This document shows positions 1 through 12,074 of a stretch of 12,074 bases of DNA, piece after piece. A program made the translations under genes and the position numbers. The stretch's first letter is position 1. The number at the start of each line of letters is the position of its first letter. This DNA is from Chloroflexota bacterium (GTDB taxonomy: Bacteria > Chloroflexota > Anaerolineae > B4-G1): assembly GCA_011046405.1 (NCBI GenBank), contig DSAR01000373.1:1-12074 (forward strand), in the 5' to 3' direction. A model generated the notes under the pieces. It did not search any database. It was given only the letters and a program-made list of their open reading frames with translations, and was not told the origin of the DNA.

Positions 1-4
1 ATCC

Positions 5-102
5 AGAAACCAGGTTTTTTCACCAAAGCAATGCGCTACTCATTGAAAAACGTGTGTGATGAGGCATATTTCGCTCAACAAGTGCCTAAAAACCTGGTTT
101 CT
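5..102. repeat. 15-bp perfect inverted repeat pair (AGAAACCAGGTTTTT at 5-19; AAAAACCTGGTTTCT at 88-102) flanking a 68-bp spacer
   Basis: Direct reading shows 5-19 is the exact reverse complement of 88-102. The region is AT-richer than the coding DNA and lies upstream of the first regulator gene. Confidence 0.7.
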
Positions 103-179
103 CTGCCCCTGGTGAACGGTTACTAGAGAATCACAATGACAGGCCCATGCATGATCCCTGATAGTATAGTCCAACACCT

Positions 180-211
180 GTTTCAAAAGCGTTTCGAAAA
201 TCGTTTCAATA
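180..211 (+). promoter_or_regulatory. Three phased direct repeats GTTTCAAAA(180) / GTTTCGAAAA(191) / GTTTCAATA(203), 11-12 bp periodicity, ~45 bp upstream of the ORF1 start; candidate operator for an OmpR/SARP-type winged-helix regulator
   Basis: The repeats are seen directly, with one copy per helical turn on the same DNA face. This is the geometry of SARP/OmpR-family binding sites. Both adjacent genes encode SARP-type N-terminal DNA-binding domains. Confidence 0.4.
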
Positions 212-256
212 TCTGTAACGATCGGGCCTGTTTCTCGTCGAACACGTAGAGAACCC

Positions 257-3200
257 ATGTCCACGTCTCGATTGGCCCTATCGTTGCTCGGTTCACCATC
301 CCTCGAGCTTGACGGCCGCCCCGTCAAATTCGAGAGACGAAAGACCGTGGCGCTCGTCGCCTATCTGGCTGTCACCGCCGAGACTCACTCCCGTGAGGCG
401 CTGGCCGCGCTGTTCTGGCCAGCGCTCGACCAATCGCGGGCCCTATCTGGCCTCCGTCTGACGCTCTCGACGCTGAAGCGGGCGCTGGGCGAGAGATGGT
501 TGGAGATCGAACGCGACTGTCTAGCGGTCAGGACAGGCCGCGACGGATTCTGGCTGGACGTGGACCACTTCCACGATCTGCTCGATGCCTGCCAGAAACA
601 TGGCCATCCTCCCGAGCGAGTCTGTTCCGCCTGTCTTTCCTTTTTGACCGAGGCCGTCGATCTGTGTCGCGGCGCTTTTATGGCCGGCTTTAGCCTGCGC
701 GATTGCCCCACCTTCGACGATTGGCAGGCGTTTCAGGGCCAGCGGCTGAACGGTACGTTGTGCCACGCCCTGAAAAAGATCGTTCGCGGCTACGGCGCTC
801 AGAAGGCGTTCGACCGCGCTATCCCATACGCGCAACGTTGGCTGTCGATCGAGCCGCTGAGCGAGGCCGCCCATCGCACCCTCATGGGGTTGTACGCCCA
901 GACTGGCTGTCGAGAGGCCGCCTTGCGTCAATACGAGATATGCGCTCGGCGACTCGAGCGTGAGTTAGGGGTGGCGCCTGGTGAAGAGACTGCCCACCTG
1001 CACGATGATATCCTAAAGAGAGGTTCGCCCGCGCCCGCCTTTGAGACCGATCTCGCTTCCCCTCAAATGCCCCATGGCGTTCCCTTTTATCCTACCCCGT
1101 TCCTCGGTCGGTCGAGCGAATTGGCCAAGATAGCCCAATCTTTGGAGGATCCGGCCTGTCGCACGTTAACCCTGATCGGCGTTGGCGGCGTTGGTAAGAG
1201 CCGCCTGGCGGCCCAGGCGGCGGCGCAGGCGGTGGGCAACTTTGCCCACGGTGTCTACTATATCCCGCTGGCCGCGCTGAATTCGCCCACTCTGTTGGCT
1301 TCCACCATCGTCCATTCCCTGGGTCTCTTTCTGCACGGTGGGACGTCTCCCGTCGAACAGCTCCTCGGCTACCTGCGCGAAAAAGAGATGTTGCTCGTGC
1401 TGGATAATTTCGAACACCTGCTGCCTTTTGGGCAGGATCGCGGCAGCGGGACGGACACGGGCATTTCCGATGCAGCCGAGTTGCTCGTCAAACTCCTCGA
1501 GCACGCCCTGGGACTCAAGTTCCTGATCACGTCGCGGCGCCCCCTGGCCTTGAAATGGGAATCGACCCTGGTGGTTCAAGGGCTCGGATTGCCGAGCGAC
1601 GCGGCGGAGGATACGGCGGAACGCTGCGATGCGGTCCGGTTGTTCGTCCAGAGCGCGCGGCGGGTTCGACCGGGCTTTCAACTGGGGGGCGAGGAGAGGC
1701 CTTCGGCCATCCACATCTGCCGATTCCTGGGGGGGCTGCCGTTGGGAATCGAGATGGCGGCCACGTGGCTGCAGGCGCTTTCCTGTCAAGAGATCGCGCA
1801 AAAGATCGAGCAGGGGCCAGCGTTGCTGTCCACTCACTCACAGGACATCCCTGAACGGCATCGTAGCCTGCAAACCGTGTTCGACGACTCTTGGAAGCTG
1901 CTAACGGAAAAGGAAAGGCGGGTGTGTCGTGGGCTTTCGGCGTTTCGGGGCGGGTTTCACGGTGAAGCCGTCGCCGAAAACGTGGCGGGCGCCACTCTTC
2001 CCATCCTCTTTGCCTTGATGCGCAAGTCTTTTATCCACCGCACGCCCCGTGGGCGGTACGAGATGCTGGAAATTCTACGGTGCTATGTCGAGGAAAAGCT
2101 CGAGGACGAAGAGAAACGGCGGGTGCACGACGCCCACTGCCGATATTACGCCGACTATGTCTATCGGCGGGAACGCTGTGTGGATGGGGAGGATCAGCAG
2201 AAAGCGCTCGGCGAGATTCAGGCGGACATCGGCAACGTGCGCGCGGCCTGGAGGTGGGCCGTGGCCCAGGGCCGCTTGGAAGCGATCGACAAATCCCTGG
2301 AGAGCCTTTGCTTCCTCCACCAGGTGCGGGGCTGGTTCGAAGAAGGGCGCGCGCTCTTCGAGATGGCCGCCAGCAGGCTCGAGGAGATGGGCGATGTCCC
2401 CGCTGAAGGGAATCGGTCCAAGGATGCGGTGCTCGCTCGCGTTCTGGCTCGCCAAGCGAGGTTGTGCGTTCCGCTCTCTTTGTACGAAAAGGCGGATTCG
2501 CTCCTGCGGACCAGCCTGGGGATTTTCCGCCGCCTGGGGATGCAAAGAGAATCGGCGTCGGCGCTCTACTACCTGGGGCTCGTCGCCTACTGCCTGGGCG
2601 AATATGCGCGAGCCCAAGACCTGTATCGAGAAAGCCTGGCGATCTGTGAAGAGCTTGCGTATCTGCCTGGCGCGGCAAGGAGCCTGGTCCACCTGGGCGT
2701 GATCGCCTCTCATCAAGGTGAGCATGCAGCCGCGCGACAGCTGTGCCAGAAAAGCATGGCGATATTTCTAGAGACCGGAGATCGGCTGGAGACCGCCAGG
2801 TGCCTGGGCAATATGGGGCTCGTCGCGGCGGCCTCGAAAGAGCACGCCGAAGCGGAACGGTTGCATCGCGAAAGCCTGACGATGTTTGAAGAGATCGGTG
2901 ATCAGCTGGCGATCGCCAAGTGTTACCACAACATGGGGGCCGCCGTGCGCGCTCAAGGGGATCATCGCAAAGCCAGGCATCTCTACCAGCAGAGTCTGGC
3001 CATCGCCGAGTCCCTGGGCGACCGATGGGGCATCGCCAGCAACTCGATTGGCCTGGGGTTCACCCTCTCGAACATCGGGGAGGGGCGCGAAGCGAAAGAA
3101 CGGTTTCAAAAGGCCCTAGAAACGGCCGCGAGCCTGGGGGTGACGCCGATGATTCACGAGTCCCTGCTTGGATTGGCGGCACTCCTGGCGCAGACAGGGG

Positions 3201-3397
3201 ATATTGCGAAAGCGCTGGAAATCACCGCTTATCTGCGTCACTGTCAGGCCGTTCAGGGGGAGCAGGTCCAGGCCTTGGTCGAGGATCTCTTTGACCGATT
3301 GGCCCCTCAACTGGCGCCCAACCAACTAGCCCAGATCGAGGCCAGAGCCCAGGCCAGAGATATCGAGCATTACATCGACGTTTGCCGAGGGCGTTAA
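257..3397 (+). CDS. AfsR-like STAND transcriptional regulator: N-terminal SARP/OmpR-type winged-helix + BTAD, central NB-ARC P-loop NTPase, C-terminal TPR repeats (1046 aa)
   Basis: The N-terminus (LLGSPSLELDGRPVKFERRKTVALVAYLAV...ALFWP...LKRALGE) fits the trans_reg_C/SARP pattern. Walker A is LIGVGGVGKSRLA and Walker B is MLLVLDNFEHLL. The ITSR sensor-1-like motif and the GLPLGIEMAATWL (GLPL) motif of NB-ARC/STAND NTPases are present. The C-terminal ~350 aa consists of ~40-aa TPR-like repeats (LGxxxxxxGxYxxAxxxYxxSLxIxxxLGD). It is a long uninterrupted ORF. Confidence 0.85.
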   Translation: MSTSRLALSLLGSPSLELDGRPVKFERRKTVALVAYLAVTAETHSREALAALFWPALDQSRALSGLRLTLSTLKRALGERWLEIERDCLAVRTGRDGFWLDVDHFHDLLDACQKHGHPPERVCSACLSFLTEAVDLCRGAFMAGFSLRDCPTFDDWQAFQGQRLNGTLCHALKKIVRGYGAQKAFDRAIPYAQRWLSIEPLSEAAHRTLMGLYAQTGCREAALRQYEICARRLERELGVAPGEETAHLHDDILKRGSPAPAFETDLASPQMPHGVPFYPTPFLGRSSELAKIAQSLEDPACRTLTLIGVGGVGKSRLAAQAAAQAVGNFAHGVYYIPLAALNSPTLLASTIVHSLGLFLHGGTSPVEQLLGYLREKEMLLVLDNFEHLLPFGQDRGSGTDTGISDAAELLVKLLEHALGLKFLITSRRPLALKWESTLVVQGLGLPSDAAEDTAERCDAVRLFVQSARRVRPGFQLGGEERPSAIHICRFLGGLPLGIEMAATWLQALSCQEIAQKIEQGPALLSTHSQDIPERHRSLQTVFDDSWKLLTEKERRVCRGLSAFRGGFHGEAVAENVAGATLPILFALMRKSFIHRTPRGRYEMLEILRCYVEEKLEDEEKRRVHDAHCRYYADYVYRRERCVDGEDQQKALGEIQADIGNVRAAWRWAVAQGRLEAIDKSLESLCFLHQVRGWFEEGRALFEMAASRLEEMGDVPAEGNRSKDAVLARVLARQARLCVPLSLYEKADSLLRTSLGIFRRLGMQRESASALYYLGLVAYCLGEYARAQDLYRESLAICEELAYLPGAARSLVHLGVIASHQGEHAAARQLCQKSMAIFLETGDRLETARCLGNMGLVAAASKEHAEAERLHRESLTMFEEIGDQLAIAKCYHNMGAAVRAQGDHRKARHLYQQSLAIAESLGDRWGIASNSIGLGFTLSNIGEGREAKERFQKALETAASLGVTPMIHESLLGLAALLAQTGDIAKALEITAYLRHCQAVQGEQVQALVEDLFDRLAPQLAPNQLAQIEARAQARDIEHYIDVCRGR

Positions 3398-3408
3398 CGG
3401 GGGTGTCT

Positions 3409-6400
3409 ATGTCCAATCTGGCGCTGTACCTGCTGGGCGCGCCGCGTATCGAGCTCGACGGAACGGTGGTTGTCATTGGCAGGCGGAAGGCGGTGGCTTT
3501 GGCCGCGTACCTGGCTGTGACGGGTGAGAGACATTCTCGCACAGCTTTGGCCAGACTTTTCTGGCCAGAATCGGATCCGCCCCACGCCCTGGCGGCCCTG
3601 CGCCTGGCGCTCTTGACCTTGAAGGAGGCCATTGGCGAAGAATGGCTCGAGATCGAACGCACGAGCCTGGCCCTTTGCCGTACCCCAGATTACTGGTCAG
3701 ACGTGACGCATTTCCGCCATCTTTTGATTGGGTGTGAAGCGCATACCCATTCCCCCGACAGTGTGTGTCCTAACTGCCTTGCTCTGTTGACCAACGCCGT
3801 GCTCATCTACCGCGACGATTTCATGGCCGGCTTTACCCTGCGGGACAGTTCGGCTTTCGACGATTGGCAATCCTTCCAGTGTCAGGACCTGCAGCGCAGG
3901 TTGGATTACGCGTTGGAAAAGCTGTCCCTTGGCTACGGGGCGCGCGGCGAGTTGCACCACGCCGTCCCATTCGCTCAGCGATGGTTGAACCGCGATCCTT
4001 TGAACGAATCGGCTCATCGTTTGTTGATGCGTCTGTATACCTGGAACAAACAACGCGAGGCGGCCCTGCGCCAATATCAGCGCTGTCGAGAGGCGCTTGA
4101 GCAGGAGCTGGGGCGCTTTCCGGAAGAGGAGACGGATCAACTCTACCACGCCATCATTGAGGATCGTTTGCCTCCTCTCGATGGGCTTTCATCTTCATTT
4201 TCGTTTCGCCCTCTGCTGTCTCACAATCTTCCCTCTCAATCGACGCCCTTCCTGGGGCGGGAGCGTGAGTTGGCCAAGCTCCTGGCACTTCTCCGTGATC
4301 CTGCTTGCCGACTTTTGACGCTGGTCGGCGTTGGCGGGGCCGGCAAGACGAGGCTTGCCTTGCAGGCGGCCGCGGACGTCGCGATCCAGGATGCGGAGGC
4401 GTTCGTCGATGGTATACGGTTCGTCTCCCTGGCCTCCCTCACATCCCCAGATTTGCTGGGCTCAGCCATTGCGCGTTCGCTGGGCCCCTCTTTTCACGGA
4501 CAGGTAGACGTCGAGGCGCAAATTCTGGACTATTTGGAAGACAGGCGGATGTTGCTCGTGTTGGACAACTTTGAGCACCTGCTTTCTTCACCCATCTCTT
4601 CCAGCCGTTTGGAGAGAGGTGCAAAGGCGGCCGGGTTGATCGCCCGGATTCTAGGATCTGCCCCCCAGGTAAAGATGATGGTCACCTCGCGGGAACCGCT
4701 GGACCTTCAGGGGGAATGGCTCTTTGAAGTCACAGGGCTAAAGTGTCCTCCAGCGGATAGGACTGAAGCGCTGGAGCAGTACGATGCGATTCGATTGTTT
4801 CTGCAAAGCGCCCGTCGCGTTCAGCCAGACTTTCGAGTTTTGGAGGACGAGGCGCCTTTTGTGGTCCGCATCTGCCGGTTCTTGGATGGTTTGCCGTTGG
4901 GGATCGAACTGGCCGCCGCCTGGCTGCAAATGTTTACCTGTCAGGAGATCGCGCAGAGGATCGAACAGGGGCTCTGCTTCCTCGATACGTCCTTGCGAGA
5001 CGTCCCAGAACGGCACCGCAGCCTGCGAGCCGTGTTCGATCATTCCTGGGACCTTTTATCGGATGAGGAAAAGGACGTATGTCGCTGTCTTTCAGTGTTC
5101 CGGGGAGGATTCCGTGGTGAGGCCGCGGCAGAGCAAGTCGCTGGGGCCTCGTTGCCGACGCTTCTTTCCTTGATACGCAAGTCATTTCTCCACCTCGATC
5201 CCGATGGACGCTACGCGATGCCCGAGGTGCTGCGCAGGTACGTCGAGGGTAAGCTCGATCAGCATCCCCAACAGAAGGCGCTCGCTCGAGAGCGCCACTG
5301 TGAATATTACGCTGAATTCCTACACCAACGGCATGGCGACATAGAGGGAAGAAACCAACGGCAGGCGTTGGAAGAGATCCGCAAAGAGCTGGAGAACGTG
5401 CGGGTCGGTTGGGAGTGGGCCGTGAAGCAGGTGAATATGGAGGCCATAGACAAGGCCATAGGCAGCCTTTGTCATCTTTACGAGATGCACGGATGGTTTC
5501 AGGAGGGCGAAGAGCTCTTGACCAGGGCCTGGGAAGCGTTGAGTGAGTCTATGCAGGCGATGAACGATCCCCCGACTCGGGATCTCTTGATTCTGGCCCG
5601 GGTCATCGATTGGCGCGGCTGGCTGTGTTACTTGCTCTCCCGTTTCGAACAAGCTCGAGACCTGTTGGAAACCAGCTATGCCATGTTCTGCCGTCTTGAT
5701 GAACAAGAGGCGCGCGCCCTATCGCTCAAGAACCTGGGCAATGTGACGACGAGTCTGGGTGAATATGCCGCAGCTAGAAAACTATTTCAGAAAAGCGTTT
5801 CCATCTCTAAAAGGGCCGACGATCAGGTCGGCATTGGATGGGGATTTGATGGCCTGGGCTATATCGCCGAGGCGATGGGGGAGTATGCCAGGGCCCGGCG
5901 GTTGTATCAGAGATGCCTTGGAATTTGGAAAGAGCTGGGAAATCCAGAGGGGATCACCTGGAGCCTCATGGGGCTGGGATCGGTCGCCGAGGCGTCAGGG
6001 GAACAGAATGAAGCCAAAGACCTGTTCGACGACTGTATGGCTCATTGTACAAAGAGCGACAATCAGCAGGGGATTGGCTGGTGTCTCGACGGCCTGAGCC
6101 GTCTCGCTGAGGGTTCGGGAAACTACGAGGAAGCCAAACGGCTCGCTGGACGAGGACTGGCGATCTTTCAAGAGATCGGCGATCGTTCTGGGATAGCGAT
6201 TGGCTTTAGGAACCTGGGATTTGCTTCTCTGGCTCTGGGCGATTACCGAGAGGCCAGGGATGCTTTTCAGAGAGCGATCGACATGGCTCAGGATGTAAAG
6301 GCGATTCCTGTGCTCGTAGACACACTGGTGGGGGTGGCGGATTTGCTGGCGGCAGAGGGCGAGGCGGAACAGGCAGTGGAACTGCTCGCCTTTCTGCTCC

Positions 6401-6546
6401 GTCATCCCGCCACGACCGCCCGATACAAGAAGCGGGCGCAAAGGCTTCACACGGCGCTCTCCTCTCGGCTTTCGCCCCAGGCTTTCCGCCCCGCCGAAGC
6501 AAGGGGAGAAGCACGGACCCTGGAAAGTTTTACCCCCATCCCGTAG
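3409..6546 (+). CDS. Second, paralogous AfsR-like STAND regulator (SARP wHTH-BTAD / NB-ARC / TPR), ~1045 aa; alternative TTG start at 3382 would overlap ORF1 stop
   Basis: It has the same domain order and motifs as the upstream gene: LLGAPRIELDGTVVVIGRRKAVALAAYLAV, LVGVGGAGKTRLA, MLLVLDNFEHLL, GLPLGIELAAAWL, and a TPR-like C-terminus. The ATG at 3409 aligns with the paralogue N-terminus (MSNLALYLLGAP vs MSTSRLALSLLGSP). It is preceded by GGGGTG and starts 11 nt after the ORF1 stop. Confidence 0.85.
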   Translation: MSNLALYLLGAPRIELDGTVVVIGRRKAVALAAYLAVTGERHSRTALARLFWPESDPPHALAALRLALLTLKEAIGEEWLEIERTSLALCRTPDYWSDVTHFRHLLIGCEAHTHSPDSVCPNCLALLTNAVLIYRDDFMAGFTLRDSSAFDDWQSFQCQDLQRRLDYALEKLSLGYGARGELHHAVPFAQRWLNRDPLNESAHRLLMRLYTWNKQREAALRQYQRCREALEQELGRFPEEETDQLYHAIIEDRLPPLDGLSSSFSFRPLLSHNLPSQSTPFLGRERELAKLLALLRDPACRLLTLVGVGGAGKTRLALQAAADVAIQDAEAFVDGIRFVSLASLTSPDLLGSAIARSLGPSFHGQVDVEAQILDYLEDRRMLLVLDNFEHLLSSPISSSRLERGAKAAGLIARILGSAPQVKMMVTSREPLDLQGEWLFEVTGLKCPPADRTEALEQYDAIRLFLQSARRVQPDFRVLEDEAPFVVRICRFLDGLPLGIELAAAWLQMFTCQEIAQRIEQGLCFLDTSLRDVPERHRSLRAVFDHSWDLLSDEEKDVCRCLSVFRGGFRGEAAAEQVAGASLPTLLSLIRKSFLHLDPDGRYAMPEVLRRYVEGKLDQHPQQKALARERHCEYYAEFLHQRHGDIEGRNQRQALEEIRKELENVRVGWEWAVKQVNMEAIDKAIGSLCHLYEMHGWFQEGEELLTRAWEALSESMQAMNDPPTRDLLILARVIDWRGWLCYLLSRFEQARDLLETSYAMFCRLDEQEARALSLKNLGNVTTSLGEYAAARKLFQKSVSISKRADDQVGIGWGFDGLGYIAEAMGEYARARRLYQRCLGIWKELGNPEGITWSLMGLGSVAEASGEQNEAKDLFDDCMAHCTKSDNQQGIGWCLDGLSRLAEGSGNYEEAKRLAGRGLAIFQEIGDRSGIAIGFRNLGFASLALGDYREARDAFQRAIDMAQDVKAIPVLVDTLVGVADLLAAEGEAEQAVELLAFLLRHPATTARYKKRAQRLHTALSSRLSPQAFRPAEARGEARTLESFTPIP

Positions 6547-6562
6547 CAAGCTCCCGTTAACC

Positions 6563-6728
6563 TAACCTGGACGAGCCAGAGCCAAAAAGGAGCCATTGGC
6601 CATCAAATTCTTGCTCGCTGTACAAGGATTCTATTGGTTAGGCCCTAACCTGGACGAGCCAGAGCCAAAAAGGAGCCATTGGCCACCAAATTCTTGCTCG
6701 CTGTACAAGGATTCTATCGGTTAGGCCC
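6563..6728. repeat. 83-bp tandem direct repeat x2 (6563-6645 and 6646-6728; 81/83 identical, both differences T->C), each unit flanked by CCTAACC...GGTTAGG 7-bp inverted termini; copy junction forms a perfect 15-bp palindrome GGTTAGGCCCTAACC (6636-6650)
   Basis: Read directly from the sequence. Each unit also contains three GAGCCA hexamers (copy 1 at 6573, 6579 and 6590) and an AAAAAGGAG Shine-Dalgarno-like motif. It is located in the 370-bp intergenic gap between the second regulator and the pentapeptide gene. Confidence 0.9.
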
Positions 6729-6730
6729 TG

Positions 6731-6817
6731 GTAACTGCTCAGGCCAGCCCCTTGCTGCGATGGAGAGTGGGGGCCCCCGCCCATCCGCTGCAAACGGACG
6801 GTAGGCTGAGCAGTTAC
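6731..6817. other. ~87-bp imperfect palindrome / nested stem-loop: outer 12-bp perfect stem GTAACTGCTCAG(6731-6742)/CTGAGCAGTTAC(6806-6817), inner imperfect stem TTGCTGCGATGG(6752-6763)/CCATCCGCTGCAA(6781-6793), centre GGGGGCCCCC (6769-6778)
   Basis: Reverse-complement relationships were checked by hand and the symmetry axis falls at 6773/6774. No U-tract follows, so it is not a canonical intrinsic terminator. It could be a Rho-independent-like insulator, a protein-binding palindrome or a structured leader or RNA. Confidence 0.6.
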
Positions 6818-6834
6818 ATGCCCTGTAACAAAAT

Positions 6835-6863
6835 TTGCGTTTGAGGTAAATCTGTGATATTCT
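6835..6863 (+). promoter_or_regulatory. Candidate sigma70-type promoter for the pentapeptide/SPFH operon: -35 TTGCGT (6835-6840), 17-bp spacer, extended -10 TGaTATTCT (6855-6863)
   Basis: Hexamer spacing and the TGn motif were read from the sequence in an AT-rich stretch ~55 bp upstream of a strong RBS (AAGGAG 6904-6909) and the ATG at 6918. Confidence 0.4.
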
Positions 6864-6917
6864 TGATTTAGCCATTTATCTCTCATCCCTCGGCGTCCAC
6901 AAGAAGGAGCAACATAC

Positions 6918-7634
6918 ATGTCTTCGAACGTTAATCCCAAGGTTATCGGCGATCAACCGGCGGAACCGGTCGATCTCAGCAAGAAATGGCGCGTGCGGAG
7001 CGACCTGGCCAATCACAAAGATCTACGCCGCGCCAAGCTCAAGGGCATCCAATTGGCCGGGGCGAGTCTTTCTGGGAGAGCATTGCAAGGGGCAGATCTG
7101 CGGGAGGCGGATTTGTTCATGGCAGATCTAACCGGCGCAGATCTGGCCGGTTGTGATTTGCGGGACGCTGTGCTGGACCATGCCAAACTGGCCCGGGCGT
7201 CTCTTTTTCGGGCGGACCTATCGGGGGCCAGCCTCAGATCGGCCGATCTCAGCGGGGCGGATTTGGATGGCGTTTCTCTCAAGGAAGCAGACCTCTCATT
7301 TGCCTGTCTCTCCAAGGCCAGGTTGACGCATGCGGACCTGGAACAGACGAATCTCAGGAACGCGGTGTTGCGCGGCGCTTATCTGCATGGCGCCAACTTG
7401 ACCAAGGCGGATTTGCGAGAGGCGGATCTGGGCCAGACGAAACTGATGGGGGCGAATTTGACCCGGGCGGATTTGCGGGGTGTCAAGAATTTCCTGTTCC
7501 GCGATTTGCGACACATTGAATTTCAACGGACAAAAGGCTCGCTCCTCATTCTCTTGACGGGGATGCTCAGACGTTTACAAGATCAATTCTTGAATCCATC
7601 GACATCGAGTGACCAATCATCTGCCAGGACGTGA
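6918..7634 (+). CDS. Pentapeptide-repeat protein (238 aa)
   Basis: Residues ~40-195 are tandem A(D/N)L-x-x pentapeptides (ADLREADLFMADLTGADLAGCDLRDAVLDHAKLARASLFRADLSGASLRSADLSGADLDGVSLKEADL...). The canonical SD AAGGAG lies 8 nt upstream of the ATG. Confidence 0.85.
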   Translation: MSSNVNPKVIGDQPAEPVDLSKKWRVRSDLANHKDLRRAKLKGIQLAGASLSGRALQGADLREADLFMADLTGADLAGCDLRDAVLDHAKLARASLFRADLSGASLRSADLSGADLDGVSLKEADLSFACLSKARLTHADLEQTNLRNAVLRGAYLHGANLTKADLREADLGQTKLMGANLTRADLRGVKNFLFRDLRHIEFQRTKGSLLILLTGMLRRLQDQFLNPSTSSDQSSART

Positions 7635-7687
7635 CCCAGGGCACCTTCAACGGGATGACGTGACGTGAGCGGAAGGGAGTATTCGCT

Positions 7688-9424
7688 ATGCTCATCTTGC
7701 TAAAAGAGTTATTCTATTTATTATTGCAAGTCCTGATCGGCATGTTGACTCCCTTTTTGCTGGCGGGGACCGTGACGGGAGCAATGGTAGCACTGCTTTG
7801 GTTGGCCGGGTTCTCCCCATCTAAGCGGGGCAATGAGACTGTGGGATTTTTGTGGATGTTTGGCGGTGGCGCATGCGCGTTCTTTTACTCCTTCCTGCGT
7901 TTGATGTTGGGCCTCGATAGCCTCCTCGTGCTTTTCATCCTCAACGCCTTGGTGGGAGTGCTGATAAACGCCGGATTAGGTGGGTCGGCAACGAAGGACA
8001 AGCCATTCCGGTGGTGGGTGTTTTACCTGGCCTGGCTCTACCTGTGGATGACGGTCTTGCTGGGTTGGCGTTATGGCTTCCTGGGGCTTTTGCTGATCAC
8101 GTTACCGGCCCTGATCGTCGCCGAGTTGGGACTCTTTTTCGTAGCCGGCTACCTCTTGCCGTTCCCTTACCTGGATCTCTACCGGGACGAGCGACCCGCA
8201 CCAGATCCGGCCGATATACCGACTTTTATGGACGAGATCAAGGATTTCATCGCGCTCATGCGCTTGCCAGAGAACGAAGAAGCGCGCCGAGAGTGGTTCG
8301 ACCGGCGACGAAAGGCGCTGCAGTGCTTGATCACGTATGCGTTGGGAAGCAATTATCCATATTACGTCATCATCGACGAAAAAATCAACGAGCGGACCGA
8401 GGGAATTCGCACCTGGTTGCCCTGGGAAGATAAGCTGATCAAACGCCTGGATGGAGACGTCTTCAACGAGTTCCTGGCCGGACCCGGCATCATCCTCTCC
8501 GGTTGCGATCAAGCGGTCGTCCTTTCCACCGGCCTCAAGTTCAAGGGAGCCAAGGGGCCGGGCGTCGTTTTCACCGATTACGCCGACGCCCCCACCCAGG
8601 TGATCGATTTGCGGCCGCAGTTGCGAGGCTTTACCGTCAAAGCGCGAATGAAGGATGGCATTGAAGTCAAGGTTTTCACGTTCACACCCTTCCAGATCGG
8701 TACGGGTGAAGAACGGCCCAAGCTGGGTGAAAGCTTTCCCTACCGGACCAGCGATGTGTTCAAGGCTGTCCACGCCCAGTTGATCGAGCACGGAGACCTC
8801 TCTCAGGTGCCGGAGAATTTGGAGCGGAAGGAATGGTACGACCTGGCCCAGATCATCGGGGAGCGGGCCGTCCGGGAGGAACTCTCCAAGTACGAGTTTG
8901 ACGAGCTCTATGCTCCAATTGACGATCTGTACTTGCCACCCGATTGGGAAAGCATTCGGAATAAGGTTAACGGGGCGCTGCGGGATGCCCTGGAGAAAAA
9001 ATTACCCGAACGCGGATTGCAACGTGTGGGCAGCGGATTGAGCAACATCGAGCCGGTGGACACGCGCGTATTGGAGCAGCGGATCGAAGCCTGGCGGGCT
9101 CGTTGGACGCGCGAAATTATGTTGAAAGAAGCAGTGGGGCAATCTACCCGGCTGCGTATGGTGGAAGAAGCTCGGGCCCGGGCCCAGATCGATGTGATAG
9201 TGTCTATCGGTAATCAGATCAAAAAGTTGCGGGACGCGGGAGATTCGGTGCCAATGGGCGAAGTGGCTCGATATTTTATCCGCGTTCTCGAAGGATTGGC
9301 TGGAAGACCCGGCGTCCAGCTTCACCTCCCGAAAGATACGGAAGAGGTGCTGCGTAAAGCAGAACACGTGGTTTCGGAATCTGAAAAGACAGAAACAGAA
9401 ACTAAAAAGGAACGAGCGGCTTGA
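7688..9424 (+). CDS. Polytopic membrane protein (approx. 6-7 predicted TM helices in first ~165 aa) with C-terminal SPFH/band-7 (stomatin-prohibitin-flotillin-HflK/C)-like domain and coiled-coil tail (578 aa)
   Basis: The N-terminus has hydrophobic stretches (LFYLLLQVLIGMLTPFLLAGTVTGAMVALLWLAGF, FLWMFGGGACAFFYSFLRLMLGL, WWVFYLAWLYLWMTVLLGW and others). The core SPFH signature is GPGIILSGCDQAVVLSTG...VIDLRPQLRGFTVKARMKDGIEVKVFTFTPFQI (GE-G-V...VDLR-Q...TKDG-V-V...V-YRI pattern). An RBS AAGGGAG precedes the ATG. Confidence 0.6.
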   Translation: MLILLKELFYLLLQVLIGMLTPFLLAGTVTGAMVALLWLAGFSPSKRGNETVGFLWMFGGGACAFFYSFLRLMLGLDSLLVLFILNALVGVLINAGLGGSATKDKPFRWWVFYLAWLYLWMTVLLGWRYGFLGLLLITLPALIVAELGLFFVAGYLLPFPYLDLYRDERPAPDPADIPTFMDEIKDFIALMRLPENEEARREWFDRRRKALQCLITYALGSNYPYYVIIDEKINERTEGIRTWLPWEDKLIKRLDGDVFNEFLAGPGIILSGCDQAVVLSTGLKFKGAKGPGVVFTDYADAPTQVIDLRPQLRGFTVKARMKDGIEVKVFTFTPFQIGTGEERPKLGESFPYRTSDVFKAVHAQLIEHGDLSQVPENLERKEWYDLAQIIGERAVREELSKYEFDELYAPIDDLYLPPDWESIRNKVNGALRDALEKKLPERGLQRVGSGLSNIEPVDTRVLEQRIEAWRARWTREIMLKEAVGQSTRLRMVEEARARAQIDVIVSIGNQIKKLRDAGDSVPMGEVARYFIRVLEGLAGRPGVQLHLPKDTEEVLRKAEHVVSESEKTETETKKERAA

Positions 9425-9439
9425 AGGGAGATAGGATCT

Positions 9440-10981
9440 ATGTTCCGCTTACGGATTAGAGACCAGTATTCAAACCGGGTTTTCATGGTGGGCTTGATCG
9501 TCGTCCTAGGCATTCTCCTGGGTGCTTTGGTGGCTTATCAACACCGCCAGATCGACTTTATGGAATTCGTGGGATTGACGGAGTTTAGGGAGCGTCCTTT
9601 CCTGCAAGTATTTATGGCGATGAATCCTCAACAGAGCGTCCAATTGCTTTTCGGCTTGCTTCGCTTGGTGATTAGCCTGTTGCCAGTCGCCATATTCAAC
9701 TCGTTGCCGTTGTTCCTGATCCTGGCCGTGATTCCCTGGGGGGCAAGCCGCTTTATCCAGACGCTCTACGACGTGAAGGATTTCAAGGAAGCGCATCAGT
9801 TTTTGCACCGCAACGTCTTCGGTATGCATATGCTCAAACCAATTTTGATCGTCAAGGAAGGAAAAATCGCGGTAGGAGCAGGGGACCTCCACGATCGGAT
9901 CGGTGGCCGCTGTTTCTTGATCGTCTACCACGACAGCGCCATCGTCTTGGAAAATGGCGGACGTCTGACGCGGGTGGTGGGGCCCTCTCTCAGTTTCATG
10001 AGACCTCACGAACGCATTTGGGGGATCGTGGACTTGCGTCCTCAGCGATGGCCTTTTAGCGTAAGTGCAATGACCAAGGATGGCATTCCCATTTCCTGTG
10101 AAGCTGATATAACATTTAAGATCGACGATCGAGAAAAGGACGAGGATGGCAACGTCATTGTCAAAGCGCCGGTCAAGAAAGAGATCGATGCCGGAAAAGT
10201 AACCGACGCAGAAATTATGGCAGAAATGAAAAAGGCCGGCATCGCGGAACCGCTTCCATACACCGAGGAGGCTGTCTTCCGGGCCGCGACCAGTATCTGG
10301 ATCCGCATCCACCAACTCGATCACCCGGAGCAGTTGCGCTATTGGACAGGACGAGTCATTCTTGGGGATGTCGAGGGAGCATTGCGCAGTATTCTGATGG
10401 ACTATCGACTCGATGATTTATTGCGCGCTCCCAAACCGGGACAGGAAAAGCCCCGAGAGGAAATACGGCAGCGATTGGCGGAGAAGTTGCAAAAAGCTTT
10501 TTCCGTTGACAATGCCATTGGCGCTCGTATTCTCCAAGTCAACCTGGGAGAATTTCACGTGCGTGACGTACAAGATGTAGGCATTCCCGACAAGGTCTAC
10601 TCCCAGTGGATCCAGACGTGGGAAGCCGGTTGGCGGCAACGGGCGATGGTGGGGCAGATCGAGCGCGAGGAAAAACTGGCCCAGGTGCAGGCCACCCAGG
10701 TCCGGGCCCAGGCCGAGATGGTGTTGACATTGACAGAACGCATTCGCCCCCTGGTCAATGATACAAATGATGTGACTTCCTACTTGCTGGCTATGCGCTT
10801 CATCGAGACCTTGCGTTGGATGGCCTATGATCCGTTCAAGCGCGCCTTCTTGCCCCCCGAAATTATACGAACGCTGGATGAATTGGACAAGGCGCTGGAT
10901 AGAACGATTGTTAGGGGAACGGAGAAAGACGAGGCCCTGGATAAGATCGGGCGCTTGCTCCTGGACAGGGGAGTGAAATAA
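9440..10981 (+). CDS. Second SPFH/band-7-like membrane protein, paralogous to the upstream gene (513 aa; 2-3 N-terminal TM segments)
   Basis: TM stretches are VFMVGLIVVLGILLGALVAY and LLRLVISLLPVAIFNSLPLFLILAVIPW. The SPFH-like core is PILIVKEGKIAVGAGDLHDRIGGRCFLIVYHDSAIVLENGGRLTRVVGPSLSFMRPHERIWGIVDLRPQRWPFSVSAMTKDGIPISCEADITFKIDD. The C-terminal region (WEAGWRQRAMVGQIEREEKLAQVQATQVRAQAEMVL...LLAMRFIETLRWMA) resembles HflK/C-type tails and parallels the ORF4 C-terminus. The start lies 15 nt after the ORF4 stop with an RBS GGGAG. Confidence 0.6.
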   Translation: MFRLRIRDQYSNRVFMVGLIVVLGILLGALVAYQHRQIDFMEFVGLTEFRERPFLQVFMAMNPQQSVQLLFGLLRLVISLLPVAIFNSLPLFLILAVIPWGASRFIQTLYDVKDFKEAHQFLHRNVFGMHMLKPILIVKEGKIAVGAGDLHDRIGGRCFLIVYHDSAIVLENGGRLTRVVGPSLSFMRPHERIWGIVDLRPQRWPFSVSAMTKDGIPISCEADITFKIDDREKDEDGNVIVKAPVKKEIDAGKVTDAEIMAEMKKAGIAEPLPYTEEAVFRAATSIWIRIHQLDHPEQLRYWTGRVILGDVEGALRSILMDYRLDDLLRAPKPGQEKPREEIRQRLAEKLQKAFSVDNAIGARILQVNLGEFHVRDVQDVGIPDKVYSQWIQTWEAGWRQRAMVGQIEREEKLAQVQATQVRAQAEMVLTLTERIRPLVNDTNDVTSYLLAMRFIETLRWMAYDPFKRAFLPPEIIRTLDELDKALDRTIVRGTEKDEALDKIGRLLLDRGVK

Positions 10982-11001
10982 TGGCAATACGTACGCCATT
11001 A
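10979..11001 (+). terminator. Weak candidate stem-loop immediately at ORF5 stop: TAATGGC-aatacgtac-GCCATTA (7-bp stem, 9-nt loop containing TACGTA palindrome); no U-tract
   Basis: The inverted repeat was seen directly. The lack of a following T-run makes an intrinsic terminator function uncertain. Confidence 0.2.
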
Positions 11002-11136
11002 CGACCAAGCTATCCAGCCGTTTAAAATCATAGTTTGTGAGTATCATCTCAATAAACCGGGGTAAGTGAGGCGCAGGCAACCGGAGGTTGCACGCATTCC
11101 GCCCTACTTTTCCCTCAACTTATTGAGAAGATACGT

Positions 11137-11164
11137 TTGTGACTTGAAGAGATTGTGGTATCCT
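11137..11164 (+). promoter_or_regulatory. Candidate promoter for the kinase-like gene: -35 TTGTGA (11137-11142), 16-bp spacer, extended -10 TGgTATCCT (11156-11164)
   Basis: Sequence reading places it about 25 bp upstream of the RBS GGAGG (11177-11181), which precedes the TTG start at 11189. Confidence 0.35.
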
Positions 11165-11188
11165 TTATCCTAACACGGAGGTTGGAAA

Positions 11189-11854
11189 TTGTCTCAGAAC
11201 ATCGTAGCCCTCATCATCTCTTTCGCCTACGTCTTCGCCGCCATCGGCGCCGCCGAGGGGTTGCGCGCATGGCGCGGCTATTCCGTCGACTTCACCCGCA
11301 AATTCATCCACATCGCCGTCGGTATGTGGTCCTTCGGGACCGTCCTGCTCTTCGAGAGTCGCGCCTGGGCCGTGATCCCGCCGCTGGCGTTCGTGCTCAT
11401 CAACGCCCTCTCCTATTGGCAAGGAACCTTCAAGGCGATGGAGACGGGCGAGAAGTGGAAACTGGGCACCATCTACTTCCCGCTCTCCTTCGCCGCCCTC
11501 ATCTGGCTGTTTTGGGACCGGCCCGAACTGCTCGTGGCGAGCCTGATGCCGATGACGTGGGGGGACGCGCTGGCGGCCATCGTCGGGCGACGCTGGGGGA
11601 AACATCGTTTCGAGGTCAAGGGTGGCACCCGCTCGTTAGAAGGCTCGGCGACAATGCTGCTCGCCAGTTGGATCGCCACGCTGGTCCCGCTGAAACTGCT
11701 CACGCCGGAACCGTTGGCTTGGAGCACGGCCATCGTGGCAGCGCTGGTGACAGCCCTCAACGCCACAGCCGTCGAGGCCTTTTCTCCCTGGGGCGTCGAC
11801 AACCTGACCGTCCCCGCCATTTCCGCTTTGATCTTGATACTTCTTTTGCCCTGA
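11189..11854 (+). CDS. Integral membrane CTP-transferase-family polyprenol kinase-like protein (phytol kinase/dolichol kinase/CdsA superfamily), 221 aa, TTG start
   Basis: It is hydrophobic throughout. It has the RKFIHIAVG motif (like the RK-x-VHI of phytol kinases) and the C-terminal GDALAAIVGRRWGKHRF...GTRSLEGSATM motif, matching GD-x-xA-x-x-x-G-x-x-x-G-K...K(S/T)-x-EG-S of the CTP_transf_1 family. A strong SD (GGAGG) lies 7 nt upstream of the TTG. The +1-frame 254-aa Arg-rich ORF 11155-11919 is a GC-driven shadow. Confidence 0.6.
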   Translation: MSQNIVALIISFAYVFAAIGAAEGLRAWRGYSVDFTRKFIHIAVGMWSFGTVLLFESRAWAVIPPLAFVLINALSYWQGTFKAMETGEKWKLGTIYFPLSFAALIWLFWDRPELLVASLMPMTWGDALAAIVGRRWGKHRFEVKGGTRSLEGSATMLLASWIATLVPLKLLTPEPLAWSTAIVAALVTALNATAVEAFSPWGVDNLTVPAISALILILLLP

Positions 11855-11866
11855 ATCGGGTAGATC

Positions 11867-12073
11867 TCACCTCTCCGCAATCACAAACTGCGCGATCCCC
11901 TGTAACCGATCCTCGATAAACACCCGCATCTCATATGTGCCAGGCTCATACCCCCCCGGTGGCTTGTAGTAGAGATACGTTTTCCCCTCGCTGTTCCACT
12001 CCCACAAAGTGGTCGTCGCATCCATCAACTCACCTTCGCGGTAGATGGCAAACGTCCAAGGGACGCCGTTGGA
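11867..12073 (-). CDS. C-terminal 68 codons of a convergent minus-strand gene continuing beyond the window end (product unknown)
   Basis: The minus frame is open and reads ...SNGVPWTFAIYREGELMDATTTLWEWNSEGKTYLYYKPPGGYEPGTYEMRVFIEDRLQGIAQFVIAER* with its stop at 11867-11869. The composition looks protein-like and the track omits it because no start lies within the window. Confidence 0.45.
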   Translation of the reverse strand, partial: SNGVPWTFAIYREGELMDATTTLWEWNSEGKTYLYYKPPGGYEPGTYEMRVFIEDRLQGIAQFVIAER

Positions 12074-12074
12074 C

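Follow-up and report, generated by a model that had tools for sequence, protein, structure and literature searches.

Two 83-bp units that lie head-to-tail in an intergenic region of a metagenome-assembled Chloroflexota genome are almost certainly non-autonomous members, comparable to miniature inverted-repeat transposable elements (MITEs), of a widespread mobile family resembling insertion sequences (IS). The units are found in a 12,074-nt stretch of DNA, hereafter the window (GenBank assembly GCA_011046405.1, contig DSAR01000373.1, positions 1 to 12,074, forward strand). Each is composed of a left end of ~30 nt and a right end of ~45 nt, the latter consisting of a hairpin, about 20 nt and the terminus TTAG-NNN-CTAA, with little else in between. 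Taken as a whole, the explanation that the units are miniature copies of an IS-like family, mobilised in the manner proposed below, accounts best for the data and is very probably correct. At the level of the locus, the finding is ordinary, a miniature mobile element lying between genes.

Tandem Repeats Finder reports 6561-6729 as a single tandem array (period 83, 2.0 copies, 97% matches, score 324), and a repeat search aligns copy 1 (6561-6643) head-to-tail with copy 2 (6644-6726) at 81 of 83 positions (98%). The two mismatches, at 6603/6686 and 6635/6718, are both T>C. These features agree with the initial annotation, which had placed the same array at 6563-6728, an offset of 2 nt. Each half-unit is found only twice in the window and was matched by none of 200 shuffles, a repeat therefore far beyond chance. 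The copies abut directly and have no spacers, so the earlier conclusion that this is not an array of clustered regularly interspaced short palindromic repeats (CRISPR) stands, as does the description of 7-nt inverted termini (CCTAACC/GGTTAGG) flanking each unit. The copy junction had been called a perfect 15-bp palindrome; the palindrome is present, and its structure is 7+1+7 (GGTTAGG-C-CCTAACC) with an unpaired central base. At this junction (6636-6648) the CTAA that closes the right-end motif of copy 1, TTAG-NNN-CTAA, doubles as the start of copy 2, such that the two copies have one core in common. The right end of copy 1 (6608-6648) reads TTCTTG..CAAGGA, followed by 20 nt finishing in TTAGGCCCTAA. 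No target-site duplication was found at the window site.

Two internal motifs had been singled out by the initial annotation. The hexamer GAGCCA does start three times in copy 1 (6573, 6579 and 6590, with spacings of 6 and 11), and a Shine-Dalgarno-like AAAGGAG is present at 6586-6592 with no plausible start codon downstream. On comparison with the rest of the family, however, neither is an independent motif: the second GAGCCA is a G-for-A change in the conserved motif GAACCAAA, the triplet not being conserved in relatives, and AAAGGAG is part of the conserved left-end sequence AACCAAAnAGG. In full-length elements, AACCAAAnAGG lies 48-380 nt upstream of the open reading frame (ORF).

The first 20 nt of the unit (CCTAACCTGGACGAGCCAGA) are found exactly in at least 118 unrelated public metagenome contigs. 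An absence of other copies had been named as the outcome that would suggest a neutral local duplication; copies are, on the contrary, abundant. Many of the matches are located at contig ends, where assembly-breaking repeats would be expected. In the extracted sites the left flank differs every time and the boundary is sharp at CCTAACC; about 30 nt are conserved (CCTAACCTGGACGAGCCAGAACCAAAnAGG), and the interiors then diverge. Several sites are elements of 80-90 nt with the end seen in the window, ...TTCTTGCTCGCyGTrCAAGGAT..GGTTAGGsCCTAA. Copies resembling the window unit, with 84-91% identity, occur at unrelated loci (L014/L035, L049, L083 with three and L114 with two), and at least seven such copies are found on four contigs of a single assembly. 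The right-end terminus T[TA]AG-NNN-CTA[AGT] is at most 250 nt away in 48 of 120 left-end matches and 1.4-2.2 kb away in four. Among the matches listed, the size classes are short elements of 80-250 nt and long elements of 1.6-1.7 kb with one ORF of ~500 amino acids (aa). Family members occur in both orientations and in arbitrary contexts.

Full-length elements, conserved ends and arrays

Six loci have the ~500-aa ORF downstream of the conserved left end. The element in L091 is complete at ~1.6 kb, with its left end at 388, the ORF at 441-1946 (501 aa) and a right end, ...TTTTGCCAAAAAATACACGAATATCATTGATAAGATACTAA, finishing near 1993. The closest full-length relative of the window unit among the matches listed is L163 (1666 bp), from a Caldilinea metagenome-assembled genome (MAG), whose left end is identical to that of the unit at 26 of 30 positions and whose right end is identical at 38 of 50. 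Since both ends match, the window unit is a left end plus a right end with a near-empty interior, as in a MITE-like deletion derivative. A further copy resides on a complete plasmid of Paraburkholderia phytofirmans OLGA172 (NZ_CP014580.1 252808-254322), where its protein, WP_063501089.1, is labelled an ‘ArsR family transcriptional regulator’.

The DNA pattern fixed the left-end sequence in advance, and the ends were consequently resampled through the protein. Seventeen insertions encoding two Bacteroidales-type proteins start with CCTAACCTGGACAAGCCAGAAyCAAACAGG and end with GATAAGATACTAA, and their flanks are unrelated. A scan with the protein profile, restricted to one genome per species, returned at least 583 loci, and the ends were analysed in 80 genome loci. 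Groups named in the titles include Chloroflexota, Acidobacteriota, Desulfobacterota, Nitrospirota, Planctomycetota, Bacillota, Cyanobacteria, Proteobacteria, Spirochaetota and Actinomycetota, and Bacteroidota is likewise among the phyla carrying the family. Identical copies occur within one genome, at least six in Anaerolineales H5_CFX5 and at least five in a Nitrospirota MAG. Nearly all of the 80 genome loci contain the left-end consensus CCTAAC-C[T/C]GG-N5-CC[A/G]G-AACCAAAnAGG, and their right ends consist of a hairpin, ~20 nt and then ...AG[G/A]TACTAA.

Over 82 distinct left junctions (L143-L222, L122-L141) CCTAAC is near-invariant. The four bases before it are G-poor, with G at only 2, 4, 4 and 6 of the 82 junctions, and the composition of the right flank is random; depletion on the left flank only thus indicates a one-sided target preference. 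No target-site duplication was found in the 17 and 80 protein-anchored insertions or in same-genome copies. The 7-nt terminal complementarity of the window unit is a property of this subfamily only, other clades having GTAAGGT or GTAGAGG opposite the invariant CCTAACC. Long inverted repeats are absent, and the ends are asymmetric. In same-genome copies the identity extends through CCTAAC; a junction in L075, ACTAA/CCTGG (the slash marking the joint), fits a shared CTAA core either way.

Both ends contain a hairpin. In 52 distinct left ends, a consensus that window positions 6561-6590 fit except for one A>G change, the 4-bp stem is paired in all 208 of 208 cells (100%), with double changes that compensate each other at three of its four pairs (CTGG/CCAG, CCGG/CCGG, TCGG/CCGA, CCGA/TCGG). 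This score was not attained in any of 500 shuffles, and the pairing collapses in every slid register. The hairpin of the right end varies more: of 60 distinct right ends, 29 have a perfect stem of 5 bp or more at a fixed position, compared with 10.7% of shuffles, in variants such as TCCTGC/GCAGGA, TTTGCC/GGCAAA and ACTCTTG/CAAGAGT. A subtype of short element has an insert of ~20-34 nt in the loop of the left hairpin (CTGG-CAGAAGCCGCTGCGCTTCCAAG-CCAG), as at L075 225-306, L114 9850-9949 and L083 ~10225-10330 (minus strand). This insert can form a nested hairpin, and the loop therefore tolerates large insertions with the 4-bp stem retained.

The head-to-tail junction with a single shared CTAA (GGTTAGGs/CCTAACC) is not confined to the window. 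It recurs in L012, L075 (three times) and L114. Head-to-tail junctions are also seen in L019, L025 and L032, and outside L012, L075 and L114 right-end-like sequence adjoins a left end at three loci. In L012 a right-end remnant adjoins a short element, and in L114 two short elements of unlike subtypes are joined, the second like the window unit. L075 harbors, in order, a short element, a second short element whose left loop is enlarged by a 34-nt insert, a full-length element and another short element, the last junction reading GGTACTAA/CCTGG. Arrays of mixed subtypes are impossible by local duplication, which implies that an incoming copy attaches to the CTAA terminus of one already in place.

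Copy number at the locus itself varies between assemblies. Three other public contigs also code for the pentapeptide-repeat protein whose gene lies downstream of the array. L001 carries two copies of the unit and agrees with the window at 99.99% identity. In L002 there are four copies, arranged as ABAB with one additional 166-bp AB block, and the remaining 10.5 kb match at 100% identity. The B-to-A junction is present only in L002, and more than two copies must therefore exist in at least part of the population. The ABAB array must be a secondary duplication of the dimer, and the two 98%-identical copies in the window could have arisen either by joining at a resident terminus or by local duplication.

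Three further observations concern full-length copies. In some clades (L173, L189, L194, L197 and L201) only ~48-50 nt separate the element's first base from the start codon of the ORF, which leaves little space for an internal promoter; expression may come from outside read-through or from a promoter spanning a right-end/left-end junction. One full-length copy (L153) is on a 1858-bp contig binned into the MAG of an archaeon of the ANME-2 cluster (anaerobic methanotrophic archaea), and this could be a mis-binned contig of repeat length or a transfer into archaea. In the contig pairs L122/L129 and L127/L130, one flank of a full-length element is common and the other differs. These are likely assembly chimeras at the repeat or products of recombination between copies, and they call for caution in empty-site analysis of metagenomes.

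The element-encoded protein and a proposed mode of movement

The ~500-aa protein has no match in Pfam, NCBIfam (including its IS transposase models), PHROGs or the sequences of the Protein Data Bank (PDB) beyond weak winged-helix signals. Its homologues number in the thousands, are named ‘hypothetical’, ‘MarR family’ or ‘predicted transcriptional regulator’, and typically come from contigs of 1.6-2 kb. A profile search of 1.84 billion cluster representatives (50% identity) retrieved 10,354 clusters at E ≤ 1e-3, 5,500 at E ≤ 1e-10 and 1,313 at E ≤ 1e-30. P0047, P0170, P0224 and WP_063501089.1 are publicly labelled MarR or ArsR regulators on the basis of the C-terminal winged helix only. In proteins of multicopy, end-bounded elements such labels are probably systematic errors of annotation.

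Modelled with AlphaFold2 from an alignment of 80 sequences (mean pLDDT, the predicted local distance difference test, 82.7), the protein looks like a fold of the TATA-binding protein (TBP) type joined to a MarR-like winged helix, and the TBP-like part (~370 aa) seems to be a pseudo-dimer in a single chain. Fold searches of the model matched only TBP-like and winged-helix structures. Against viral models, the best Foldseek match is the TBP-fold protein A0A2N9QVX7 (E 3e-5), and several Inoviridae proteins follow at E of about 0.01-0.07. According to a 2026 paper (PMC13107129), A0A2N9QVX7 is also matched by RepSNJ2, an archaeal Rep-Arvir protein whose substrate is a hairpin origin and in which a MarR-like winged helix comes after a TBP-fold domain.

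The active site of Rep_trans initiators comprises R189-x-Y191-x-K193, R212-x-E214, R140-x-D142-x-A144-x-D146 and D46 (Carr et al. 2016, PMC4797284), and the sequence of pT181 RepC holds the corresponding motifs TRLDLAFDF, RFIRIYNKK and WRVEIELK. In the family (P0224 numbering) we find D22, Q244-A-E246-Y-A248-T-D250, K318-M-Y320-D-K322 and R328-I-E330. An alignment of 79 divergent representatives (25-47% identical, mean column identity 38%) has 13 invariant columns, five of which are D22, E246, Y320, R328 and E330; K318, K322 and D250 are at least 90% conserved, and Y144 and Y146, in the motif KCLHxYxY, are invariant as well. As judged from this alignment, the invariant residues reproduce the active-site pattern of the Rep_trans rolling-circle nickases (D46, D142/D146, R189-x-Y191-x-K193, R212-x-E214).

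We propose that the 83-bp units are mobilised in trans by this single protein. The winged helix and the TBP-like saddle would recognise the conserved ends and hairpins, and a tyrosine would nick at the termini that contain CTAA, after which the element would travel as nicked or single-stranded DNA (ssDNA), in rolling-circle or peel-and-paste style, which would explain the lack of target-site duplications and of long inverted repeats. With (C/A)CTAA closing the right end and CCTAA opening the left end, an incoming copy joining the terminal CTAA of a resident would give the observed junction with one shared CTAA. Arrays could then grow by unequal recombination or slippage, for example from AB to ABAB. 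In the window, the element landed 15 nt past the stop codon of the regulator gene. Asymmetric ends, hairpins at fixed distances from either terminus, absence of target-site duplication, one-sided flank bias, tandem arrays and miniatures that keep only the ends together make up the anatomy of transposons that employ initiator-type tyrosine nucleases, among them IS200/IS605, IS91 and Helitrons.

The case for a Rep_trans-like nicking mechanism is evenly balanced. It is possible, and we suggest tentatively, that the family is an unrecognised superfamily of transposable elements with a tyrosine nickase of Rep_trans/TBP fold and a winged helix, forming a third class of ssDNA or rolling-circle transposase beside HUH Y1 and Y2. 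Such a superfamily, again a tentative reading, would extend over thousands of lineages in most bacterial phyla, and its near-invariant 30-nt left end and self-targeting CTAA would explain the arrays.

Several points weigh against the explanation as a whole. Foldseek found nothing in the PDB at E ≤ 1e-3, and the TBP chains that head the list have low TM-scores (about 0.2-0.25). Neither PF02486 nor PF25227 matched any of 80 members even at E ≤ 10, and when the family profile was compared by hhalign with a fragment of pT181 RepC, the alignment lacked significance (probability 0.14%) and covered another region. The window encodes no homologue of the ORF, autonomous copies being known from other contigs. 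The insertion boundaries, and the assignment of CCTAA to element or target, are inferred: no empty site was found by way of relatives of the 578-aa protein encoded further downstream in the window, the nearest of which are 55-58% identical and not syntenic upstream. The covariation of the left hairpin would also fit a role at the RNA level. Finally, the difference between two and four copies at the locus could in part be repeat collapse in short-read metagenome assemblies.

The locus and alternative explanations

Upstream of the array are two genes in tandem (257-3397 and 3382-6546, with a 16-nt overlap), each of ~1050 codons and each encoding BTAD, AAA/NB-ARC and TPR domains. From this common architecture, the products ORF1 and ORF2 are classed as regulators of the type of STAND proteins and Streptomyces antibiotic regulatory proteins (SARPs). 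The pentapeptide-repeat gene downstream is followed by two genes (7688-10981), the first for the 578-aa protein and the second for a Band_7/SPFH protein. The 578-aa protein has no Pfam match of its own, and many of its homologues carry Band_7. This pair of genes is kept in Chloroflexi at 50-58% identity, and the pentapeptide gene and the regulators lie outside the conserved neighbourhood. Relatives of the SPFH gene pair are only 55-58% identical, with other upstream neighbours and no regulators upstream, so a layout of regulators, repeat and target operon is not conserved. A scan of 6400-7000 detected no promoter, sigma-70-like promoters included, and no terminator. A promoter facing outward or formed at the junction (TGTACA-18 nt-TACTAA in other clades) was rejected, as the window version is poor and nothing supports it.

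A separate palindromic element with perfect 12-nt terminal inverted repeats abuts the array and does not belong to the 83-bp family (Table 1). It forms a long hairpin (RNA minimum free energy -48.1 kcal/mol, z -3.3). In L049 a relative of it, in opposite orientation and with an extra palindromic insert of ~30 nt, abuts an 83-nt element like the window unit, and in L014/L035 another relative lies ~230 nt from an element of the 83-nt type. Each repeat family may be a target for the other, or both may favour a common site.

Table 1. Coordinates of the array, its parts and its neighbours in the window
Feature	Position	Strand	Basis
Copy 1, non-autonomous 83-bp element (left and right family ends, almost no interior)	6561..6643	+	Tandem Repeats Finder, repeat search, comparison with L163
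Copy 2, non-autonomous element, two T>C (6686, 6718) relative to copy 1	6644..6726	+	Tandem Repeats Finder, repeat search
Left-end module, CCTAAC + hairpin + AGAGCCAAAAAGG	6561..6590; again 6644-6673	+	Family left-end comparison
Left-end hairpin, stem CTGG 6567-6570, loop ACGAG, stem CCAG 6576-6579	6567..6579; again 6650-6662	+	
Right-end hairpin, TTCTTG-CTCGCTGTA-CAAGGA, stops ~20 nt short of element 3' end	6608..6628; again 6691-6711	+	
Copy junction, GGTTAGG-C-CCTAA	6636..6648	+	Same single-CTAA junction in L012, L075 (3x), L114
CCT, remnant of terminal CCTAA after copy 2; second palindromic element directly follows	6727..6729	+	
ORF2, BTAD + NB-ARC/AAA + TPR regulator; stop codon 6544-6546, 15 nt before array	3382..6546	+	Pfam
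Pentapeptide-repeat protein gene; start codon 191 nt past array	6918..7634	+	
Separate palindromic repeat element, perfect 12-nt terminal inverted repeats GTAACTGCTCAG/CTGAGCAGTTAC, abuts array, not 83-bp family	6731..6817	.	Repeat search

The position of the array between the BTAD-NB-ARC-TPR genes and the next operon, together with the short direct repeats and their 11-bp spacing inside the unit, had suggested a duplicated operator in which GAGCCA sites would serve the two BTAD/SARP-type regulators in control of the pentapeptide/SPFH operon. We regard this as highly improbable. The same ends are found in at least 118 unrelated contigs and, across many phyla, in genomes and contexts without such regulators, and the second hexamer reads GAACCA in almost all relatives, so that the GAGCCA triplet is lineage noise. 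The array is, moreover, separated from the start codon downstream of it by ~190-350 nt that include another repeat element, the scanned region lacks a sigma-70-like promoter, relatives of the SPFH operon have no regulators upstream, and Pfam shows no DNA-binding domain at E ≤ 1e-3 in ORF1 or ORF2 besides the BTAD, including the part N-terminal of it. A regulatory role of the array at this locus is neither shown nor required, and nothing points to one.

The covariation of the left-end hairpin, which includes one G-U-type pair, is also what a small structured RNA or a cis-acting leader with a decoy Shine-Dalgarno sequence would show if it acted on the neighbouring genes, and both kinds had been put forward; the unit is on the same strand as the flanking genes, and its subfamily consensus folds into a closing 7-bp stem with two internal hairpins. 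That fold, however, reaches only -8.7 kcal/mol with a single covarying pair, and single units on both strands fold no better than shuffled sequences (z -0.99 and -1.26). A scan of 6300-7100 against Rfam at E ≤ 10 gave only chance-level matches (best 13-24 bits, with gathering thresholds of 45-90). Members occur in either orientation and in arbitrary contexts, the 7-bp terminal complementarity is lost in other clades, and AAAGGAG belongs to the left-end motif, far upstream of the ORF in full-length copies. The covarying hairpins belong to transposon ends, and an RNA-level explanation is very unlikely. The initial annotation had also offered a MITE-like or repetitive extragenic palindromic (REP)-like element inserted twice, and in so far as the unit is mobile, dispersed and bounds 1.6-kb elements it was right. 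A classical MITE of an IS with a DDE-type transposase, or a REP or REPIN mobilised by a REP-associated tyrosine transposase (RAYT), would likewise be short, non-coding and dispersed, and the 7-nt inverted termini and the ends in common with a longer coding element fit. We nevertheless consider this very doubtful: the 17 and 80 protein-anchored insertions show no target-site duplication, the ends are asymmetric, the 7-nt repeat is not conserved, and the partner ORF matches no Pfam or NCBIfam transposase model, those for IS families and Y1/RAYT included. Unlike these head-to-tail units of 80-250 nt, REPs are palindromes of 20-40 nt that usually come in inverted pairs. Least of all do we credit a purely local tandem duplication of unique intergenic DNA, a variable-number tandem repeat without mobility. 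The copies are adjacent and 98% identical, and two contigs that otherwise agree are set apart by exactly one AB block, which shows that the array is indeed subject to recombination or slippage. The discrete ends of the unit recur, however, at many unrelated loci, single copies included, and the arrays in L114 and L075 join unlike subtypes, which is impossible by local duplication.

Relation to known systems

The result at the locus is deflationary, in that the repeat is selfish DNA and no regulatory device of the SARP-type genes. The family itself was not described in the literature searched, a search without ISfinder and most subscription journals; it is apparently new to the literature, with a substantial chance of representing a new class of transposase. 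Its elements break metagenome assemblies, typical contigs of 1.6-2 kb being one element long, and its proteins are systematically labelled as transcription factors and fall outside the Pfam and NCBIfam transposase models searched. The left-end consensus and the protein profile enable immediate annotation of elements and miniature derivatives. If the enzyme is indeed a nickase of Rep_trans fold, this would be the first transposon family using that enzyme class, and the parallel between replication initiators and transposases, so far limited to HUH enzymes, would extend to a second fold. The family would then also offer a compact system, with a short, highly conserved and sequence-defined end, for the study or engineering of ssDNA insertion.

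Classical bacterial MITEs, such as Correia elements and Nezha, resemble the units in being small, non-coding and multicopy, often intergenic beside genes, and derived from an autonomous element with the same ends. They differ in having clear terminal inverted repeats and target-site duplications generated by DDE transposases, neither of which is found in this family. REPs, bacterial interspersed mosaic elements (BIMEs) and the REPIN-RAYT system are likewise intergenic, hairpin-capable and often clustered. These, however, are shorter palindromes in inverted pairs served by a single-copy HUH RAYT gene, whereas the family has head-to-tail units and a multicopy 500-aa ORF that is not HUH.

Closer in anatomy are the IS200/IS605 elements and their non-autonomous derivatives, the palindrome-associated transposable elements (PATEs). 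They have asymmetric ends with hairpins lying subterminally on one strand, lack both target-site duplications and long inverted repeats, and have short non-coding derivatives that keep only the ends. As in IS200/IS605, the composition bias is on one flank only, here the G-poor positions -1 to -4 on the left with a random right flank. IS200/IS605 elements encode an HUH Y1 TnpA of ~150 aa, in contrast to the ~500-aa protein of the family with its predicted TBP-like fold and winged helix, which matches neither PF01797 nor the NCBIfam IS200/IS605 models. They also differ in that a strict external tetra- or pentanucleotide target is not demonstrated for the present family and head-to-tail arrays are a family trait. 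IS91/ISCR elements and Helitrons have no inverted repeats, no target-site duplication and short conserved termini, with a hairpin at a fixed short distance from the 3' end and head-to-tail arrays, and their presumed enzyme is a tyrosine nuclease of the replication-initiator type, all as in the family. Their Rep is an HUH (Y2) enzyme, joined by a helicase in Helitrons; here the predicted fold is Rep_trans/TBP without a helicase, the ORF matches no HUH family including Y2 Rep, and a left-end hairpin is present in addition.

The Rep_trans initiators (PF02486; pT181 RepC/RepD), the MOBT relaxases and Rep-Arvir (RepSNJ2; PMC13107129) combine a TBP-like curved sheet and a (winged) helix-turn-helix in one chain, as the ORF, going by its model, may also do. 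Their substrates are DNA sites containing hairpins, like the ends of the family, and they have in common with the ORF the motifs [R/K]-x-Y-x-K, R-x-E and [D/E]-x-A-x-D and an N-terminal Asp. Known members replicate plasmids or phages or start conjugation, and they have no significant sequence or profile match to the ORF; no Rep_trans member has been reported, in the literature searched, as the transposase of a multicopy chromosomal element of 1.6 kb. The ORF is further distinguished from Rep_trans by its second invariant pair of tyrosines, Y144 and Y146.

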